The notes beneath the pieces were generated by a model, which was given only the letters and a program-made list of their open reading frames with translations, was not told where the DNA came from and ran no database searches. The position numbers and the translations under genes were made by a program. This document shows, piece after piece, positions 3,383 through 27,529 of a stretch of DNA of 28,111 nt. Numbering within the stretch: the first letter of the stretch is position 1; every line of letters starts with the position of its first letter. The stretch comes from Pseudomonadota bacterium (GTDB lineage Bacteria; Pseudomonadota; Alphaproteobacteria; Paracaedibacterales; CAIOTO01): positions 65,238 through 93,348 of the forward strand of contig JAZKDQ010000015.1 of the NCBI GenBank assembly GCA_040387495.1, written 5' to 3'.

Positions 3383-3445
3383 GAGATTGGAGACCACCAC
3401 AAAAGCTCGGGGCTAAGAATTGCATAAGAGTTGCAGGTATATGTA

Positions 3446-3474
3446 TTGACACAAAGTCTAATAAACTTTATTAT
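3446..3474 (+). promoter_or_regulatory. Predicted sigma70 promoter of the recombinase gene
   Basis: TTGACA (3446-3451), 17 nt spacer, TATTAT (3469-3474). Confidence 0.6.
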
Positions 3475-3486
3475 TAGACTTTGTGT
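3449..3486. other. Perfect 16-6-16 inverted repeat; candidate tyrosine-recombinase (dif/loxP-like) target site
   Basis: ACACAAAGTCTAATAA-ACTTTA-TTATTAGACTTTGTGT; arms are exact reverse complements with an ATAA-N6-TTAT core as in dif; ends about 95 bp upstream of the recombinase ATG. Confidence 0.7.
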
Positions 3487-3580
3487 ATTAGCTAAAAAAT
3501 TAAGGTTTTTTAGTATAAATATGAGGCGCTTTCTTATGCGTTCACTAATTAAAATTAAAATAATAAAAATGAGGACTGAA

Positions 3581-4807
3581 ATGAAATCACCAATACCTGT
3601 TTTTGAAGATCTTACACAGATGGATACATACGATCTTGTTACGTACTTACCGGATCAAACATATTTACCTGATTATATAAAAGCGCTGAACTTTCTTAAG
3701 GCATACAATGGTAGCCAGGGCACATTCAATGCCTATCGTCGTGAAGTTGAACGTTTGCTCCATTGGTGTACACTTGTAGCACAGAAATCATTGCAAGAAG
3801 TAAAGCGTGAAGATATAGAGTCGTTTATAGAATTTTGCCAGAAACCACCCACAGCATGGATTGGTGTTAACAGATTATCGCGTTTTATCACAATTGACGG
3901 AATGCGACTACCTAATCCCAAATGGCGACCTTTTGTTGTTACGATTCCAAAAGCAGCATATCAAGCTGGTGAGCGGCCAAACCCAAAAGATTTTGAACTT
4001 TCTCAAAGCGCTATTAAAGATATGTTTGCCATTCTTGGTTCTTTTTTTACTTTTTTACTTCAAGAAGAATATGTGTTTGTAAATCCCGTTGCGCTTATTC
4101 GCCAAAAAAGTAAATTCATTCGTACGGCACAAAACAAACCTAAAATCAGACGACTTTCTGATCGTCAATGGAGCTATGTAATAGCAACCGCTCAAGAAAT
4201 GGCTACTGTAAATCCCACATTACATGAGAGAACGCTCTTTATGATGTCCACTTTATATTCAATGTATTTACGTATATCAGAGCTTGGCGCCAGTAAACGC
4301 TGGAGTCCAGCTATGAATCATTTTTTTAAAGATAGCGACGAGAATTGGTGGTTTACGACTGTTGGGAAAGGCAATAAACAACGGCAAATTGCAGTGAGTG
4401 ATACGATGATAGAAGCCTTAAAAAGGTGGCGTCTATATTTAGGGTTGTCCCCCCTTCCCTCACGTGCTGACCAATCCCCCTTAATTACAAAATTACAGGG
4501 ATTTGGTGCAATTACGAATACGACATACCTTCGTCGTGTCATACAAACTTGTTTTGATCAAACAATCGCTAAGCTTAATCAAGATGGCTATGAAGAGGAT
4601 GCAGATTCACTGAAGGAAGCAACTGTTCACTGGCTTCGGCATACAGGAATATCAGATGATGTTAAACACAGACCACGTGAACATGTGCGGGATGATGCCG
4701 GGCATGGATCAGGGACTATTACAGACAAATATATCGATGTGGATTTAAAAGAGCGACATAAATCAGCTAAACACAAACTTATTCACGAGGATAATGGTTT
4801 ATCATAA
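3581..4807 (+). CDS. Tyrosine site-specific recombinase (Xer/integrase superfamily), 408 aa
   Basis: Catalytic set present: LRISE (R), GKGNK (K), HWLRH (HxxR), AGH, TDKYID (Y); N-terminal core-binding region (TFNAYRREVERLLHW); ATG 3581 preceded by GAGGA. Confidence 0.92.
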   Translation: MKSPIPVFEDLTQMDTYDLVTYLPDQTYLPDYIKALNFLKAYNGSQGTFNAYRREVERLLHWCTLVAQKSLQEVKREDIESFIEFCQKPPTAWIGVNRLSRFITIDGMRLPNPKWRPFVVTIPKAAYQAGERPNPKDFELSQSAIKDMFAILGSFFTFLLQEEYVFVNPVALIRQKSKFIRTAQNKPKIRRLSDRQWSYVIATAQEMATVNPTLHERTLFMMSTLYSMYLRISELGASKRWSPAMNHFFKDSDENWWFTTVGKGNKQRQIAVSDTMIEALKRWRLYLGLSPLPSRADQSPLITKLQGFGAITNTTYLRRVIQTCFDQTIAKLNQDGYEEDADSLKEATVHWLRHTGISDDVKHRPREHVRDDAGHGSGTITDKYIDVDLKERHKSAKHKLIHEDNGLS

Positions 4808-4974
4808 ATTAATTGGATTTTCAACGCTTCTTGTGCCCGTGATAGATGTTTACCACTTAAATTTTTTGCATAAAATGAAAATCTCAGTTTCTAAGAGGGT
4901 TTACCCTAATTTGTCTTTTTACCCTCAAAAAGGAGTATATTTTTGTAATATGGACATATCTATGTCTTCCCCTC

Positions 4975-7318: not shown

Positions 7319-8269
7319 ATGACAGTCTCTTTATTTGGTTTCAAAGCTGCAGGACTTAAGCGTCAACAATATGTTTGGTCATTAATGATATCACTTGTAA
7401 AAGGCTCATTGTTAACGCTACAACGTATTTTCATCATTATGATGGTTGTTTTGGCTTGTGTATATGCCATGGTCGTAATGCGAATAGATCATCCAATATT
7501 GAGCCGAATCAAAACTATTTCACTTGATTTAACAATGCCGCTCTTGCAGAGTATCAATCAACCTATCGTCATACTGCACCATCAATATAAAAAATTACGT
7601 GATTTCAACCAATTACAGACCAGTTTAGATTCGCTCCAAAAAGAAAATTTTCAGCTTGAAGAATGGAAATCATTAGCGCTTCAGCTCAAGCGTGAGAATC
7701 AAAATTTACGTGAGTTATTGCGCACACTTCCCTCCCCTGACCAATCATTTTTTACAGCAAAAGTACTGGGTTCCCCCGCAGGAGGTGAACATTCAACGTT
7801 ACTAATTGCTGCTACAGAGGCAGATGGAGTTGAAAAAAATGCTGTTGTAGTCTGCGCAAAAGGCGTGGTTGGACGTGTTGTTGAAACGGGGTTACTTGTA
7901 TCACGTGTTACACTGTTAACAGATATTAATGCTCGCACACCAGTCCGCTTCGAATCAACAGGAGAACATGCGATCTTGGCAGGAACGGGGAAGGCAGAAC
8001 TTGTGATTCTTCATAGAAAATCTCTTTATGAAATGCCTCTTGAAAACACAGAAAAAACTGAGGTTCTTAAAGTTGGCGATCGCCTTGTCACGTCTGGTTT
8101 TGGTGGCATTTTTCCTCCTGACTTAGCAGTCGCTATTGTGACACGTATTGAAAAAGATCCTGCAGGCGATAAAGTCCTTGCACGATTAATAGCGACACCC
8201 CAAACACTTGAATTTGTACGTATATTTGATGCCCTCGATGCCCAAGACTCATCTATTCAAGTTTCCTGA
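7319..8269 (+). CDS. mreC: Rod shape-determining protein MreC
   Basis: TM helix, coiled coil (LKRENQNLRELL), GVVGRVVE, SRVTLLTD, GDRLVTSGFGGIFPPDL. Confidence 0.95.
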   Translation: MTVSLFGFKAAGLKRQQYVWSLMISLVKGSLLTLQRIFIIMMVVLACVYAMVVMRIDHPILSRIKTISLDLTMPLLQSINQPIVILHHQYKKLRDFNQLQTSLDSLQKENFQLEEWKSLALQLKRENQNLRELLRTLPSPDQSFFTAKVLGSPAGGEHSTLLIAATEADGVEKNAVVVCAKGVVGRVVETGLLVSRVTLLTDINARTPVRFESTGEHAILAGTGKAELVILHRKSLYEMPLENTEKTEVLKVGDRLVTSGFGGIFPPDLAVAIVTRIEKDPAGDKVLARLIATPQTLEFVRIFDALDAQDSSIQVS

Positions 8270-10567: not shown

Positions 10568-11664
10568 TGACAGTTCTTCAAAAATTCACCTTTATTCCGC
10601 GAATGCCACTTTTTTTGCTATGCCTTATAACCATGCTTGGCATACTTATGCTTGTATCTGCGGCCAATGGTTCACTACACCCATGGGCAGCTAAACAAAT
10701 GATTCGTTTCACATTTGGTTTCATCGTAATGCTAGGTATTACTTGCATTAATGTTCGAATGTTTTTTGACTATGCATATCTTCTTTATTCCATTTCTTTT
10801 GTAGCATTAGTGGCTGTGGAATTGATGGGCTTTGTCGGGATGGGGGCACAACGTTGGATTGACTTATATGTATTCAACTTTCAACCATCTGAATTAATGC
10901 GCCTTGGATTAATTCTGACACTTGCACGGTATTTCCACGGACTTTCACAAGAAGAAATAGCACGTCCGTTTATGTTGCTCTCGCCAATTATTTTAATTTT
11001 CGCACCAACGTTGTTGGTAATGAGGCAGCCTGATTTAGGTACAGCAATGTTACTCATGCTAAGTAGCGCTGCAATTTTCTTTGCAGCAGGAGTTCGTTTA
11101 TGGAAATTCGCTGTTGTTGGTGGAGGAATTTTGACTGCAATCCCATTACTTTGGAGTTTATTACATGGTTATCAAAAGAAAAGGATCTTAATTTTTTTAA
11201 ACCCTGAAAGTGATCCTGCACATGCAGGTTATCACATTATACAATCAAAAATAGCATTAGGTTCTGGTGGTCTTTTTGGTAAAGGTTTTCTGCAAGGAAC
11301 ACAAAGTCACCTTAATTTCCTACCTGAAAAACAAACAGATTTTATTTTCACCATGTTTTGCGAAGAATTTGGTCTTATAGGAGCGCTTTTTCTCATCACG
11401 CTTTATACGTCACTTATTGTTTGCAATGTTCGTATTGCAATGAATGCTCGTACCACGTTTGCCCGTCTTACGGCGCTTGGCTTGTCGGCAACCCTTTTTC
11501 TTTATGTTTTTATTAATATGGCGATGGTTACAGGTCTTTTGCCTGTGGTAGGCATTCCCCTTCCCTTCTTTTCGTATGGCGGCACTGCAATGTTAACACT
11601 GCTTATTAGTCAGGGAATTTTGTTTTCTGTTCATTTACATAATGACATGCGCATTGTACGGTAA
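10564..11664 (+). CDS. rodA: SEDS peptidoglycan glycosyltransferase RodA
   Basis: GAQRWI, FQPSE, QPDLGTA, QSKIALGSGG, LPEKQTDFIF, GIPLPFFSYGG. Confidence 0.97.
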   Translation: MMTVLQKFTFIPRMPLFLLCLITMLGILMLVSAANGSLHPWAAKQMIRFTFGFIVMLGITCINVRMFFDYAYLLYSISFVALVAVELMGFVGMGAQRWIDLYVFNFQPSELMRLGLILTLARYFHGLSQEEIARPFMLLSPIILIFAPTLLVMRQPDLGTAMLLMLSSAAIFFAAGVRLWKFAVVGGGILTAIPLLWSLLHGYQKKRILIFLNPESDPAHAGYHIIQSKIALGSGGLFGKGFLQGTQSHLNFLPEKQTDFIFTMFCEEFGLIGALFLITLYTSLIVCNVRIAMNARTTFARLTALGLSATLFLYVFINMAMVTGLLPVVGIPLPFFSYGGTAMLTLLISQGILFSVHLHNDMRIVR

Positions 11665-12083: not shown

Positions 12084-13203
12084 GGCTGTGTTGCACAAAA
12101 GAAAAAGTGGGCACAGCTTCGCTATGTTTTAACTAAAATTTTAAGCAGCTCGTTTGGCTTTGGGCATGCCAAGCACTTTCATTTTATTGAGAATGCGAAC
12201 ACCAATTTGTATTTTTGTATTTTGGTTTTCTATCGTTTGTGAGCGGAGTGTTCGGCCAATGATTGTCTTGTAGCGATAGTTTGTGTTTTTGATGCCAGAC
12301 CTTTTACCATAGTGCGTAATGTCTTGCCATTTTTGACGACCAACATCCTTCATTAAATGGATGTTTCCTTTACGTTTTGACGAATCATCCTCGCGTTCAG
12401 CTTGAATGCCAAGGTTGGGAGGAATGACGGCTTTAATAGGTATATTTTGATTAGAATTGTGTTTCATGGGTATCAAGAGCATCATACGTTCCTGGGTGAT
12501 CATACCCACCTGAATCACCGTAAAATGTATCAATGGGAGCCTCAATTTCAGCAAGCAGGTCAGGTACTTGACTGACATCGCTTATGGAGTGTGTTGTCAG
12601 CGAGGCAGCAATAATTTCTCCAGATCCATCAATGGCTAAATGAAGTTTACGCCAGGCTTTTCGTTGGCGTGTGCCATGTTTATAGTTCATCCATTCTTTT
12701 TCACAAAGAACCTTAAGTCCTGTACTATCGACAATCACGACCAATGCCTCGGGTGAAGATTTTGAAAGTTTTGGCAAGATAATACGTTTGGCACGCCTGG
12801 ATAACGTTGTGTGATCTGGAATCGCCAAATCTAATTTAAGAAGCGTTACAATCGACGTTAAAAACCCTTAGGTTTGCCGGAGTGGTTGCTTATAAACCAA
12901 GCGAAGTATATGGGCTGTCTCAATCGCGAGATCGGAATACTGACGTTGACGACCACGTTTCATTTTCTCGGATCGAACGTGATTCCAGTGTGTAACTGTA
13001 TCCTCTGAAAACCACACGGTTAAGCTTCCTCGGCTCTTAAGAGATTTATCATAGGTAGCCCAGTCGCGAACGTTATAATTCTTTTTCGTAAATTTATGGC
13101 GAACGGTATCTTTAAGAGTGTAAGGCATAGAAAACAACCGATGAAAAATTAATAAGGCATCGTACACCATAATTTACAAAATTTCTATTTGTGCACCACA
13201 GCC
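12084..13203 (-). mobile_element. IS5 family (IS903-group-like) insertion sequence, 1120 bp, decayed
   Basis: Terminal IRs GGCTGTGTTGCACAAA (from 12084) and TTTGTGCACCACAGCC (ending 13203), 1 mismatch in 16; flanks GGTTGAACA / TTACGAAGT show no direct repeat. Confidence 0.9.
12141..13128 (-). pseudogene. IS5-family DDE transposase pseudogene
   Basis: WATYDKSLKSRGSLTVWF, YSDLAIE, PDHTTLSRR, VDSTGLKV, WRKLHLA and LNKMKVLGMP are spread over three ORFs; in-frame TAA at 12868-12870 (LRQT*GFL) and a frameshift near 12470. Confidence 0.92.
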
Positions 13204-16190: not shown

Positions 16191-16988
16191 GGTTCTGTCG
16201 CAAATTTTTATGATTTTTGTTAGAGTGAGCTAAATTGAATTTAGAAACAGAGATTTGCTATGAATTTCAAAGGGTCTCATTTTCCAAAAGATGTTATTTT
16301 AATGTCAATGTGTTGGTACATTGCGTATCCCTTAAGCTCTCGACATGTTGAAGAATTATTAGCTGAACGCGGCCTAAGCGTTGATCATGCAACGGTTAAT
16401 CGTTGGGTTGTTAAGCATTCACCCACACTTGAATCCAAATTTAGAAGCACCAAGAATACCGTTGGTAAAAGTTGGCTGATGGATGAGACGTACATTAGGG
16501 TCAAAGGAGAATGGGTTTACTATTATCGCGCCGTTGATAAAGAAGGCCAAACAATCGATTTCTATTTGTCAAAAACACGTGATACCAAGGCAGTGCTTAC
16601 TTTTTTCAAGAAAGCAATCAAGAGTAGCGGACAACCTGAAAAGGTTAATATTGATAAAAGTGGAGCTAATTTGGCAGGGTTACAACAGGTTAATCGAGAA
16701 TTGCCTGACACGGAGCAGATTGTGATCCGTCAGGTCAAATATCTCAATAACATGATTGAACAAGATCATCGAGGGATCAAACGCATTACTAATCCCATGA
16801 TGGGCTTTAAGAATTTTATGTGTGCAGAAGCCACGCTTGCCGGAATTGAACTTTATCACATGCTTCGGAAAGGACAAAATATGATCAAAGGATCACTGTC
16901 TGCTTGGGAGCAGTTCTATGCTCTCGCAGCATAATTATATTTCAAAAATAAGACTAATTATACCTATTCAAAAATTTGCGACATAACC
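16191..16988 (+). mobile_element. IS6 family insertion sequence, 798 bp
   Basis: IRL GGTTCTGTCGCAAATTTTT (from 16191), IRR AAAAATTTGCGACATAACC (ending 16988), 1 mismatch in 19; no flanking direct repeat. Confidence 0.93.
16260..16934 (+). CDS. IS6 family DDE transposase, apparently intact
   Basis: FKGSHFP, ERGLSVDHATVNRWV, WLMDETYIRVKGEW.Y.YRAVD, IDKSG, YLNNMIEQDHR.IK. Confidence 0.96.
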   Translation: MNFKGSHFPKDVILMSMCWYIAYPLSSRHVEELLAERGLSVDHATVNRWVVKHSPTLESKFRSTKNTVGKSWLMDETYIRVKGEWVYYYRAVDKEGQTIDFYLSKTRDTKAVLTFFKKAIKSSGQPEKVNIDKSGANLAGLQQVNRELPDTEQIVIRQVKYLNNMIEQDHRGIKRITNPMMGFKNFMCAEATLAGIELYHMLRKGQNMIKGSLSAWEQFYALAA

Positions 16989-23415: not shown

Positions 23416-23629
23416 GATTAGACCAATAAACTCCAGGTAGCATATAGGTAGCACCAGAAATAATTTCGGTGCTGAAGTTTCGCTCCAGATCGAGATTTGT
23501 AAATTAATTTACAATTAGTATCCCCTCCCCCTCAAGAAGCAAGGATTGCTAAAGACATGGGAGTTTCTTCTAATACACTATGAGGTGAACTGATTTCTCA
23601 GTAACAGCTTAAGCTCCTACACATATAAC

Positions 23630-24957: not shown

Positions 24958-26280
24958 TCACACCACGCGTGCTAATTCGTCCCAGCGTGTCGTGAAGCGT
25001 GGACTTCTCATCAGTTGTTTTGTTACATGTCGGGGTTTAATCCCACTCGAGGCAAAGAATACGGTGTCTTTCCCATTCAGTTGATTCAACTTATCGATGG
25101 CCACATTAAGAGCTATATTTTTTTGGGTATTATTGGTTGTTATTATCATTGGTGTAGGATGATCACTCAACATTTGCTTTTGTTTCTTCGCTCCCTCTTG
25201 GGTAAGATCCCACGCGCCAACCCCTGCTGCGTGATAAGTAAACCCCGGTCTAAATGCATGTCTCAGTGCTGCCAGAGCTCCTTTGATGAGTACTGAGGTA
25301 TTATTCGTGTAGGTATCAAACTCCATTATGGAAGTGCCCTTGTAATAAACTTCAGTGCTTGAGAAAGGACTGTTCCTACAAAACACATATATTGCGGGCG
25401 TGACTAGTTTTCGGCTTCTCAGCTTCTCTCCCAATCGTGTTGCGTGCACAGATACTGCTTGGGCAATGTCATCGAAGGATTTTAGCTTTACGCCAAAAGA
25501 TCTCGTAACTTGAATACTCTGTCGTTCAGGCTCGGACTCGTTAAAAGGCATGCATGATAGGCCCTGTAATTCTCGTACAAGCCGCTCTCCAATAACTCCC
25601 ATCGATTTCCTTGCCCATCATCGGGGGTCTTTGATCGAAAGGTCATACGCAGTGTATATACCCTGCTTCCTGAGCTTAGGTGTAAGTGACCTGCCAACAC
25701 CCCAGATCGAGCCAATCTCAGTTGCCTTTAATGCGGTATTTATTTCCTCATGTGTTTTGAGAATCATATATGTAGTGCGCTGCTTCTTTGCCATACGATT
25801 TGCCACTTTTGCCAGCGTCTTTGTGGGTGCTATTCCGATGGTGATTGGGATCCCTATGTATTTTAGGACAGTATCATACATTGTTTTTGCCATGATATTC
25901 ACGTCAGTAAGAGGATGATGAGAGAGGTCTATAAACGCTTCATCGATGCTGTAGACCTCAACATCAGGCGTGAACGTTCGAAGGATGGTCATCATACGAT
26001 TGCTGATGTCACCGTATAGCTCAAAGTTACTTGAAAAAATCTTGATACCATGTTGCTTGATAAGATGAGAAAATGTATGTAGGGGCGCTGCCATGGCAAT
26101 TCCAAGTGCTTTTGCTTCATTGCTACAGGCTATTGCACACCCATCATTATTGGAAAGGACAATGACGGGTTTGTTGTTAAGGGATGGGTTAAATATGCGC
26201 TCACAACTGACAAAGAAGTTATTGCCATCAACAATTGCAAAGAGAGACGAATGCTTAACGTGGCAAACCGTAAATGACAT
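24958..26280 (-). pseudogene. umuC: Y-family DNA polymerase V catalytic subunit (UmuC-like) with an internal in-frame TGA
   Basis: VDGNNFFVSCE, VLSNNDGC, FSSNFELYGDISNR, YSIDEAF, GIAPTKTLAKVAN, IWGVG, TRSFG, C-terminal SPRFTTRWDEL; both ORFs are in the same frame, separated by TGA at 25618-25620. Confidence 0.9.
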
Positions 26281-27094: not shown

Positions 27095-27529
27095 CTATTT
27101 CTTGCTGTGAAGTATCTCAAGTTGTTCTCGAATGATATCCAGTTCCTCAGCATTACATTTGTGAATCGAGAATCCCTTAGCTTCAACCAACTTGACAATC
27201 TCCTGTGCTTCTTCGAGTGAGAGTTCAGAATCGCCAACCTGACCTACTATCGCTGTCATTGCGGTGTTGATATCGGTCTGTGTATGTAGGTTCTTGATAG
27301 CATCACTTTTCACGAATGTTTGTGCTTTAGGGGTTGGCATCACTCGATCAAGTATAAGCTTAGATGCAGCCAGATCACCTGCTAATGCGAGCTCTATTAC
27401 CTTCTTTAAAATTGCCTCGGCATTCTCACTACCAATTCGTTCCAAGAAAATTTGAGCATTATTTTTGCTTCCCATTGGACGACCTTTACCGAATTGATTT
27501 CCAGGCTGAAAAGCATGTGATTTTTGCAT
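27095..27529 (-). CDS. DUF5681-like phage-associated protein (small-terminase-like N-terminus)
   Basis: FQPGNQFGKGRPMGSKN followed by VIELALAGDLAASKLILDR; AAGGA RBS. Confidence 0.7.
   Translation of the reverse strand: MQKSHAFQPGNQFGKGRPMGSKNNAQIFLERIGSENAEAILKKVIELALAGDLAASKLILDRVMPTPKAQTFVKSDAIKNLHTQTDINTAMTAIVGQVGDSELSLEEAQEIVKLVEAKGFSIHKCNAEELDIIREQLEILHSKK

Follow-up and report, generated by a model that had tools for sequence, protein, structure and literature searches.

XerL-family recombinase and adjoining symmetric dif-like site, a probable chromosome dimer resolution module of a Paracaedibacteraceae-like alphaproteobacterium

Introduction

In the XerL/dif system a single recombinase is necessary and sufficient at a symmetric dif site and is also active in yeast (Nicholson, Deecker and Ensminger 2022, PMC9765430; here and below we refer to those passages of the paper that were consulted). 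XerL denotes Lpg1867 of L. pneumophila and a Coxiella plasmid protein, XerL(Cb), which complements L. pneumophila. The dif sites of Legionella and Coxiella consist of perfect, uninterrupted inverted-repeat arms, 10 and 12 bp long. The plasmid copy of dif beside xerL in Coxiella recombines and the chromosomal dif is distinct from it, and L. pneumophila has its dif and its xerL separated by more than 400 kb. Further traits of the system are a dif near the replication terminus, recombination that does not depend on RecA, and filamentation upon loss of the site or the gene. The dependence of XerL on FtsK was left open for Legionella, and the search for orthologues was confined to the NCBI Legionellales database. 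Here we describe a stretch of 28,111 nucleotides (the window) from contig JAZKDQ010000015.1 of the Pseudomonadota assembly GCA_040387495.1 (positions 65,238 to 93,348, forward strand), in which the gene of a XerL-like tyrosine recombinase directly follows a perfectly palindromic, dif-like site.

Other single-recombinase systems, XerS/difSL and XerH/difH, are thought to have been acquired as one module each, and the dyad symmetry of difSL and difH is only partial (PMC9765430). Our literature search found no paper that places XerL outside the Legionellales, and term searches of the consulted text of PMC9765430 gave no mention of Tn3, of FtsK-orienting polar sequences (KOPS) or of a promoter within the site.

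We consider it quite probable that the locus is the host's chromosome dimer resolution system, consisting of a XerL-family recombinase and its dif in one compact module. A first-pass annotation of the window had proposed a distinct module for this task that might be new. The function is supported by the lack of XerC, XerD and their dif and by the convergence of KOPS motifs, but the module is not undescribed, as the XerL/dif system has been known since 2022. What the window would add to that paper is the host, the loss of XerCD, the turn of KOPS polarity at the site, the intergenic spacer shared with a canonical dif, the link to Tn3-family transposons and the predicted embedded promoter.

Results and discussion

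The recombinase and its site

The elements of the locus are the following.

3446..3474, + strand: predicted sigma-70-like promoter TTGACA-17-TATTAT, 11 of 12 matches, inside the dif site
3449..3486, no strand: candidate XerL dif site, perfect 16-6-16 palindrome with the central region ACTTTA
3571..3575, + strand: ribosome-binding site GAGGA, 5 nt ahead of the ATG
3581..4807, + strand: xerL orthologue, 408 amino acids, catalytic Tyr384

The ATG at 3581 is preceded by GAGGA and opens an intact frame of 408 amino acids that closes at 4807; 94 bp lie between the palindrome and this ATG. In an alignment of 16 family members, which are 62–86% identical to the window's protein, R231, K263 or K266, H350, R353, H375 and Y384 are invariant. 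Frame and alignment thus bear out the intact R-K-H-R-H-Y recombinase of the first-pass annotation. The segments HWLRHTGISDD and RDDAGH, which it had regarded as an atypical tail, turned out to be conserved across this family and are not peculiar to the window's copy.

The Pfam models gave a SAM-like N-domain (28.7 bits, threshold 22.3) and the phage-integrase family PF00589, the latter barely above its threshold (27.8 versus 27.1 bits). The scores with the NCBIfam equivalog models of XerC (62.7 bits, cut-off 335), XerD (56.1 bits, cut-off 330) and XerS (NF003462, 23.5 bits, cut-off 267) are far under the cut-offs, and the protein is therefore none of these. In a tblastn search against plasmids, 59.2% of residues across 99% of the protein were identical to CBUA0010 (pQpH1), the one recombinase of the C. 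burnetii virulence plasmids, which the 2022 paper identifies as XerL(Cb). Tyr384 aligns with the sole tyrosine of the Coxiella motif ITDRYID, which corresponds to Y389 of the 2022 paper if translation starts, as we assume, at an ATG seven codons into the annotated coding sequence; the mutants of the catalytic tyrosine described there are Y387F in L. pneumophila and Y389F in C. burnetii (PMC9765430). Based on these sequence comparisons we assign the window's recombinase as a XerL orthologue. The family is large, with 6227 of 8000 scored candidates at E ≤0.001. Among solved structures no match was found at E ≤0.001 with the window's protein or at E ≤0.1 with a profile of the 16 sequences. AlphaFold2 with the 16-row alignment yielded a poor model (mean predicted local distance difference test score 59, and below 50 across most of the catalytic domain), and the Foldseek matches of this model to XerH (top), Cre, XerD and XerA (best E 7.8e-4, TM score ~0.25) give a weak hint at most.

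The site reads ACACAAAGTCTAATAA-ACTTTA-TTATTAGACTTTGTGT. A repeat finder returned two arms of 16 nt (3449–3464 and 3471–3486) with 100% complementarity and a separation of 6 nt. The 38-mer is single-copy in the window at ≤3 mismatches and had a match in 0 of 100 shuffles. The perfectly symmetric site with its asymmetric spacer that had been noticed at first pass is confirmed. In the whole 1.66-Mb genome its 10+10 arm pattern occurs once (≤3 mismatches), and the genome total of perfect 9-6-9 palindromes with inner AA/TT is three, this site included. The likeness to E. coli dif extends to the inner ATAA-N6-TTAT and stops there.

Comparison with described systems

The locus shares with XerL/dif an orthologous single recombinase, symmetric arms around a short centre and the lack of XerC and XerD; in addition, a dif copy adjoins xerL on the Coxiella plasmid as well. 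It differs in its alphaproteobacterial host, in arms of 16 bp instead of 10 and 12 and of another sequence, and in the position of the site where a congener has a canonical dif. Unlike in L. pneumophila, the presumed chromosomal dif adjoins the gene. The systems XerS/difSL of streptococci and lactococci and XerH/difH of Helicobacter and Campylobacter have in common with the locus a single recombinase and a dif near its gene, but by its model score the window's protein is not a member of XerS. With XerC/XerD and their 28-bp dif it shares the inner ATAA-N6-TTAT, KOPS convergence, the gamma domain of FtsK and the inferred task, whereas it has one enzyme and identical arms; the canonical system is found in the congeners G001 and G004. 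Cre/loxP of phage P1 likewise combines one recombinase, identical arms and an asymmetric spacer and needs no partner enzyme, but sequence similarity is not detectable and the arm and spacer lengths differ.

Host genome and absence of XerC and XerD

The window lies on contig C15 of a genome (G000) of 20 unordered contigs with 1.66 Mb in total and 99.9% completeness. The nearest named relatives of the neighbouring penicillin-binding protein PBP2 belong to Candidatus Paracaedibacteraceae (75%), Candidatus Finniella, Holosporales and Azospirillaceae; a class I lysyl-tRNA synthetase and an ELM1-like protein are also encoded in the window. By these relatives the host, a symbiont-like bacterium, is a Paracaedibacteraceae-like alphaproteobacterium outside the Legionellales. 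Membership in the Legionellales was considered and dropped in view of the PBP2 relatives from Paracaedibacteraceae, Finniella and Holosporales.

The search of G000 with PF00589 gave a single match, the window's xerL, which is the only tyrosine recombinase there. The models of XerC and XerD also found xerL itself as their best match (49 and 38 bits), and XerC and XerD were not found by these profile searches of the 99.9%-complete genome. The canonical dif of the genus type was absent from G000 at ≤4 mismatches of 23, and the window contains no remnant of it near the locus. The first-pass annotation had deduced from the identical arms that one homomeric recombinase acts on the adjacent site, a view that is supported by the finding of a sole tyrosine recombinase. 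RecA is present in G000, and so is an FtsK frame of 806 amino acids with a gamma domain; chromosome dimers should thus form, and the usual motor is available.

Contigs from a second run of the same study and from two other studies contain parts of the locus unchanged, and one contig from another study covers the entire palindrome. Among the contigs of the four runs no excised, empty or rearranged form of the module was found; two low-support joints were seen elsewhere.

An intergenic spacer shared with a canonical dif

Contig C79 of the congener G004 has the gene order gpmI (82%), M23 (64%), mreB (99%) and mreC and carries no xerL. Its homology with the window ends at the stop codon of M23 and restarts 67 bp ahead of mreB, which defines the following segment.

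3383..4967, + strand: segment without counterpart in the gpmI-M23-mreB locus of G004 C79, where the spacer measures ~126 bp

This segment contains the site and the gene and nothing else. The ~126-bp spacer between M23 and mreB in G004 contains a canonical dif-like sequence, TTCCATAA-TACAAA-TTATAAT, and the KOPS motifs of C79 follow the order '+', '+', canonical-type site, '-'. In G001, which has XerC and XerD and no XerL, a site of the G004 type occurs once, with 2 mismatches, at a contig end, and five GGGCAGGG motifs point at it. The XerD arm of the G004/G001-type site reads TTATGGAAAAT on the opposite strand and is identical to the XerD arms of the dif sites of Rickettsia prowazekii and Ehrlichia ruminantium as given in the consulted part of Carnoy and Roten (2009, PMC2731167). 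A search around the insert for a second half-site or for direct repeats at its flanks gave only short, chance-like matches. The module occupies differing gene contexts across genomes.

As a side observation on this neighbourhood, an ELM1-like gene (PF06258, 6123–7301) stands between mreB and mreC in the window and is also present on contig C7 of G001; it is lacking on G004 C79, where mreC directly follows mreB.

Polarity of KOPS motifs at the site

The motifs GGGNAGGG and GGGCAGGG correspond to the KOPS consensus of E. coli in the consulted part of PMC2800217. The reference set consisted of 17 other contigs of G000 with a clear skew sign (1.38 Mb), among which GGGCAGGG was the most strand-skewed octamer (48:0 relative to GC skew) and GGGNAGGG overall tracked GC skew at 93:7. 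Due to these ratios the E. coli consensus seems to serve in this Paracaedibacteraceae-like lineage, too. Contigs of G010 and G001 also show a strong polarity of these motifs.

On the window's contig, six GGGNAGGG motifs of '+' orientation (3,003–62,633) precede the site at 68,686 and four of '-' orientation (69,689–88,760) follow it. The polarity therefore reverses inside a 7-kb interval that contains the site. In window coordinates the four reversed motifs are:

4452..4459, - strand: KOPS-like GGGAAGGG, first motif right of the site, within xerL
7730..7737, - strand: KOPS-like GGGGAGGG
11558..11565, - strand: KOPS-like GGGAAGGG
23523..23530, - strand: KOPS-like GGGGAGGG, where GC skew and gene orientation also switch

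Given the error rate of 7%, four consecutive reversed motifs on one replichore would be very unlikely. A similar arrangement was found in two further genomes. Contig C41 of G010 shows three '+' motifs, then a xerL-adjacent palindrome at 7,793 and then five '-' motifs, with a flip of GC skew at that point, and contig C8 of G003 shows one '+' motif, the site at ~8,566 and four '-' motifs. G012 C28, G011 C33 and G013 C1 have motifs to just one side of the site, and these contigs are thus compatible with a terminus position without being tests of it; G013 C63 is motif-free.

Two further observations were made on contigs carrying xerL. At ~22–32 kb of G013 C1, six '-' GGGNAGGG motifs are followed by four '+' motifs, and GC skew becomes positive; this divergent point resembles an origin and has a xerL locus only ~25 kb away. 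The ends of G000 contig C15 carry repeats in common with C5, as seen when contig ordering by end overlaps was attempted. Positions 1–216 and 889–1104 of C15 form inverted 216-bp repeats (95%), with copies at ~81,428–81,687 and on C5, and these are likely insertion-sequence ends that broke the assembly.

Sites beside homologues, distribution and phylogeny

We compared 48 distinct homologous loci, 47 of them with at least 250 bp of upstream sequence, using as site pattern a 9-6-9 palindrome with ≤1 mismatch, NNNNNN(T/C)AA-N6-TT(A/G)NNNNNN. The first-pass annotation had expected the palindrome upstream of homologues. It was present within 250 bp in 13 of the 47 loci, and a perfect one lies 1.2–2.8 kb upstream in four more. 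In 276,374 scanned bases all 11 perfect palindromes stand upstream of xerL; the 12 other matches have one mismatch each. A looser scan was positive in 15/47 upstream regions compared with 5/47 control windows inside the gene. The arms vary by lineage (GTCTAATAA, CCTGTAA, GTGATAA, CTTGCAA) and the symmetry is kept. At the 14 adjacent sites the centre, read on the sense strand of the gene, never has fewer pyrimidines than purines, so that the mutual orientation of site and gene is fixed. The arms also covary, 10 of 11 position pairs changing on both sides, but this is circular, as the sites were chosen for being palindromes, and we do not count it as evidence.

In a family set of 10 genomes, XerCD alone occurs in G001 and G009, XerL alone in G000, G003, G006, G007 and G008, both systems in G004, and neither in the incomplete G002 and G005. 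Across the order (62 genomes, which as relatives are not independent) XerCD occurs in 52 genomes and XerL in 12: XerCD alone in 47, both in five, XerL without XerCD in seven and neither in three, the last with completeness of 75, 88 and 90%. XerL is thus present in 7 of the 10 genomes of the order without XerCD. XerD-like genes are also lacking in G010, G012 and G013.

In the phylogenetic tree, the window's XerL and that of locus L002 group with sequences of a Legionella sp. metagenome-assembled genome and of Coxiella plasmids behind a 100/97 split, and the XerL proteins of the congeners G003, G004 and G006 fall on the other side of it. The xerL loci of these three genomes have CCTGTAA-type arms and different neighbour genes. 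Together, the split, the different arms and the different neighbours point to more than one acquisition of XerL within the genus.

Observations that weigh against a dimer resolution module

A number of findings do not favor the proposed function or limit its generality. To the right of the site there are only four motifs, one of them inside xerL and none a strict GGGCAGGG. The GC skew of the contig switches at ~87–88 kb, ~19 kb right of the site, and gene direction is unchanged across the site and turns only at ~87–88 kb. For Legionella species, offsets of dif between 89 bp and 79 kb are reported (PMC9765430), a range that includes the ~19 kb seen here; together with the turn of KOPS polarity this agrees with a dif near the replication terminus, although few motifs bear on it. 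Contig C14 also shows a '+', '+', '-' order (three motifs, odd skew), and the 20 contigs are unordered. Homologous loci without such a palindrome within 3 kb make up 30 of the 47, so that the palindrome accompanies xerL at only a part of the loci. On G007 C3 and G008 C6, xerL (49% identical) lies mid-replichore with no clear adjacent site; the gene-site adjacency is therefore not general, and the mid-replichore position is the same as in Legionella. Five genomes of the order carry both systems, with one XerL copy being a fragment with stops and another having one stop. Finally, G004 is an assembly of 240 contigs and 2.0 Mb that possibly mixes strains, which makes its possession of XerCD plus XerL uncertain.

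Link to Tn3-family transposons

A divergent Tn3-family transposase gene lies 76–250 bp from xerL in 10 of the 47 distinct loci, among them L002, which at 71% identity is the closest relative of the window's XerL among the genome contigs searched. Both xerL copies on contig C45 (54.9 kb) of G054 likewise stand beside divergent Tn3-family transposase genes, and for one of them a perfect GGGTGATAA-N6-TTATCACCC was found between the two genes. The contig, probably a plasmid or an integrative element, also encodes TraG-like and TrwB-type coupling proteins (conjugation), and its genome has retained XerCD. Classically, a Tn3 res lies between divergent genes and has a promoter embedded in it. With the tyrosine 'TnpR' resolvase of the Tn4401 family the window's protein has 24% identity across 90% of its length; this subgroup is named in the consulted part of a survey of tyrosine recombinases (10.1101/542381). 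As far as the consulted parts of the sources go, Tn4401 'TnpR' and the TnpI/IRS system of Tn4430 resemble the locus in the overlap of the site with the recombinase promoter, and the homologues divergent from Tn3-family transposase genes, with the palindrome in between, are a further likeness; they differ in that the window has no transposase and in that its inferred task is not cointegrate resolution.

The locus could, from these similarities, be the leftover of a Tn3-family transposon, namely a tyrosine resolvase with its res whose transposase gene was lost and which has no role in chromosome segregation. We regard this as unlikely. A Tn3-family transposase gene was not found in the window, the sole match in G000 being on contig C14, and near the terminus-located xerL copies of G000, G003 and G010 there was no transposase within the available stretches. 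The gene is intact and encodes the sole tyrosine recombinase of a genome that has lost XerCD and the canonical dif. The turn of KOPS polarity and the presence of XerL in most genomes of the order that lack XerCD also argue against a mere remnant. A transposon origin and a present-day function as dif system are nevertheless compatible.

Two contigs named here have further contents. On G000 C14 the Tn3-family transposase gene (73127–76084) is of full length and has 30% identity to its G054 counterpart; there is no tyrosine recombinase beside it, and the contig is atypical in GC skew and KOPS pattern. G054 C45 (L121–L123) also carries three group II intron reverse-transcriptase frames as well as condensation and AMP-binding genes of non-ribosomal peptide synthetase-like type.

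A predicted promoter within the site

The -35 element of the predicted promoter touches the left arm of the palindrome, and the -10 element covers the central region and the right arm. The promoter recurs in the same register, with 10–11 of 12 matches, at L002, L062 and the C. burnetii plasmid locus; these loci and that of the window are all four members of the window's subclade with an adjacent site. At L078, which belongs to the wider 100/97 clade and has a long branch, the promoter-like match falls in a different register, and the register of 3446–3474 was not found in the group with CCTGTAA-type sites. The embedded promoter is near consensus and presumably drives xerL. With a presumably strong xerL promoter inside the site, XerL bound to the palindrome would probably also repress its own gene.

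The palindrome might then be an autorepression operator and nothing more, with the true dif located elsewhere as in L. pneumophila. The promoter register common to four related loci would agree with this, as would the mid-replichore xerL of G007 and G008 and the difference between the Coxiella plasmid copy and the chromosomal dif. We hold such a restriction to be quite improbable, because the Coxiella plasmid site adjoining xerL does recombine, because G000 contains no second copy of the site at ≤3 mismatches of 20 and no further long palindrome of its kind, and because KOPS polarity reverses at the site in G000, G010 and G003. A reading of the gene as an integrase and of the palindrome as an attachment site, both belonging to a genomic island or an integrated mobile element, is highly improbable. 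Although 3383–4967 is inserted relative to G004 C79 and gene contexts vary by genome, the insert holds site and gene only, neither a second half-site nor direct repeats were found at its flanks, no excised or empty form appears among the contigs of four runs, and the protein is orthologous to a proven dimer resolution enzyme.

Other features of the window

The window also contains transposase genes or fragments amid housekeeping genes, a DDE_Tnp_1_5 match at 12868–13170 (- strand) and an IS240/IS6-type DDE transposase at 16260–16934 (+ strand). The gene of a UmuC/DinB-like Y-family polymerase falls into two adjacent frames at 24958–25602 and 25618–26280 (- strand), with the domains IMS on the one side and IMS_C plus DUF4113 on the other, and is probably broken. 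Beside it, in the last 5 kb where skew and orientation flip, lie a DUF5681 frame (27095–27529) and small open reading frames of unknown kind.

Conclusions

If the locus serves in dimer resolution, a XerL homodimer would bind the two identical arms of each site, and the two sites on a chromosome dimer made by RecA would meet at the septum, probably via FtsK, which would track GGGNAGGG motifs directed at the site from both sides. Tyr384 would then perform the strand exchanges across the 6-bp centre and convert the dimer into two monomers. As to its history, the module occupies the spacer in which a congener has its canonical XerCD-type dif, and G000 has lost xerC, xerD and that dif. It probably came from a mobile source, since close homologues are paired with Tn3-family transposase genes.

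Tentatively, and with somewhat more doubt than confidence, we propose a joint view of these findings. XerL and dif may form a portable module, carried among amoeba-associated bacteria by Tn3-family transposons and conjugative plasmids, which has several times displaced XerCD/dif by landing at a KOPS convergence. The XerL of the Legionellales might be one such domestication, XerL might, as the turn of KOPS polarity at its sites would imply, be under FtsK control like XerD, and the site might double as the operator of xerL.

The 38-bp symmetric site with its single enzyme of 408 amino acids is a further candidate recombination tool. The prospect of a new Cre-like tool, raised in the first-pass annotation, was already anticipated by the activity of XerL in yeast (PMC9765430).

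XerL was presented as a peculiarity of the Legionellales and is here likely the sole dimer resolution system in an alphaproteobacterial lineage with close relatives that use XerCD. The window's genome and its congener would represent the 'after' and 'before' states of one intergenic spacer. This makes it testable how an essential housekeeping recombination system can be replaced, whether FtsK and KOPS act together with XerL, and whether Xer systems and transposon resolvases exchange roles.

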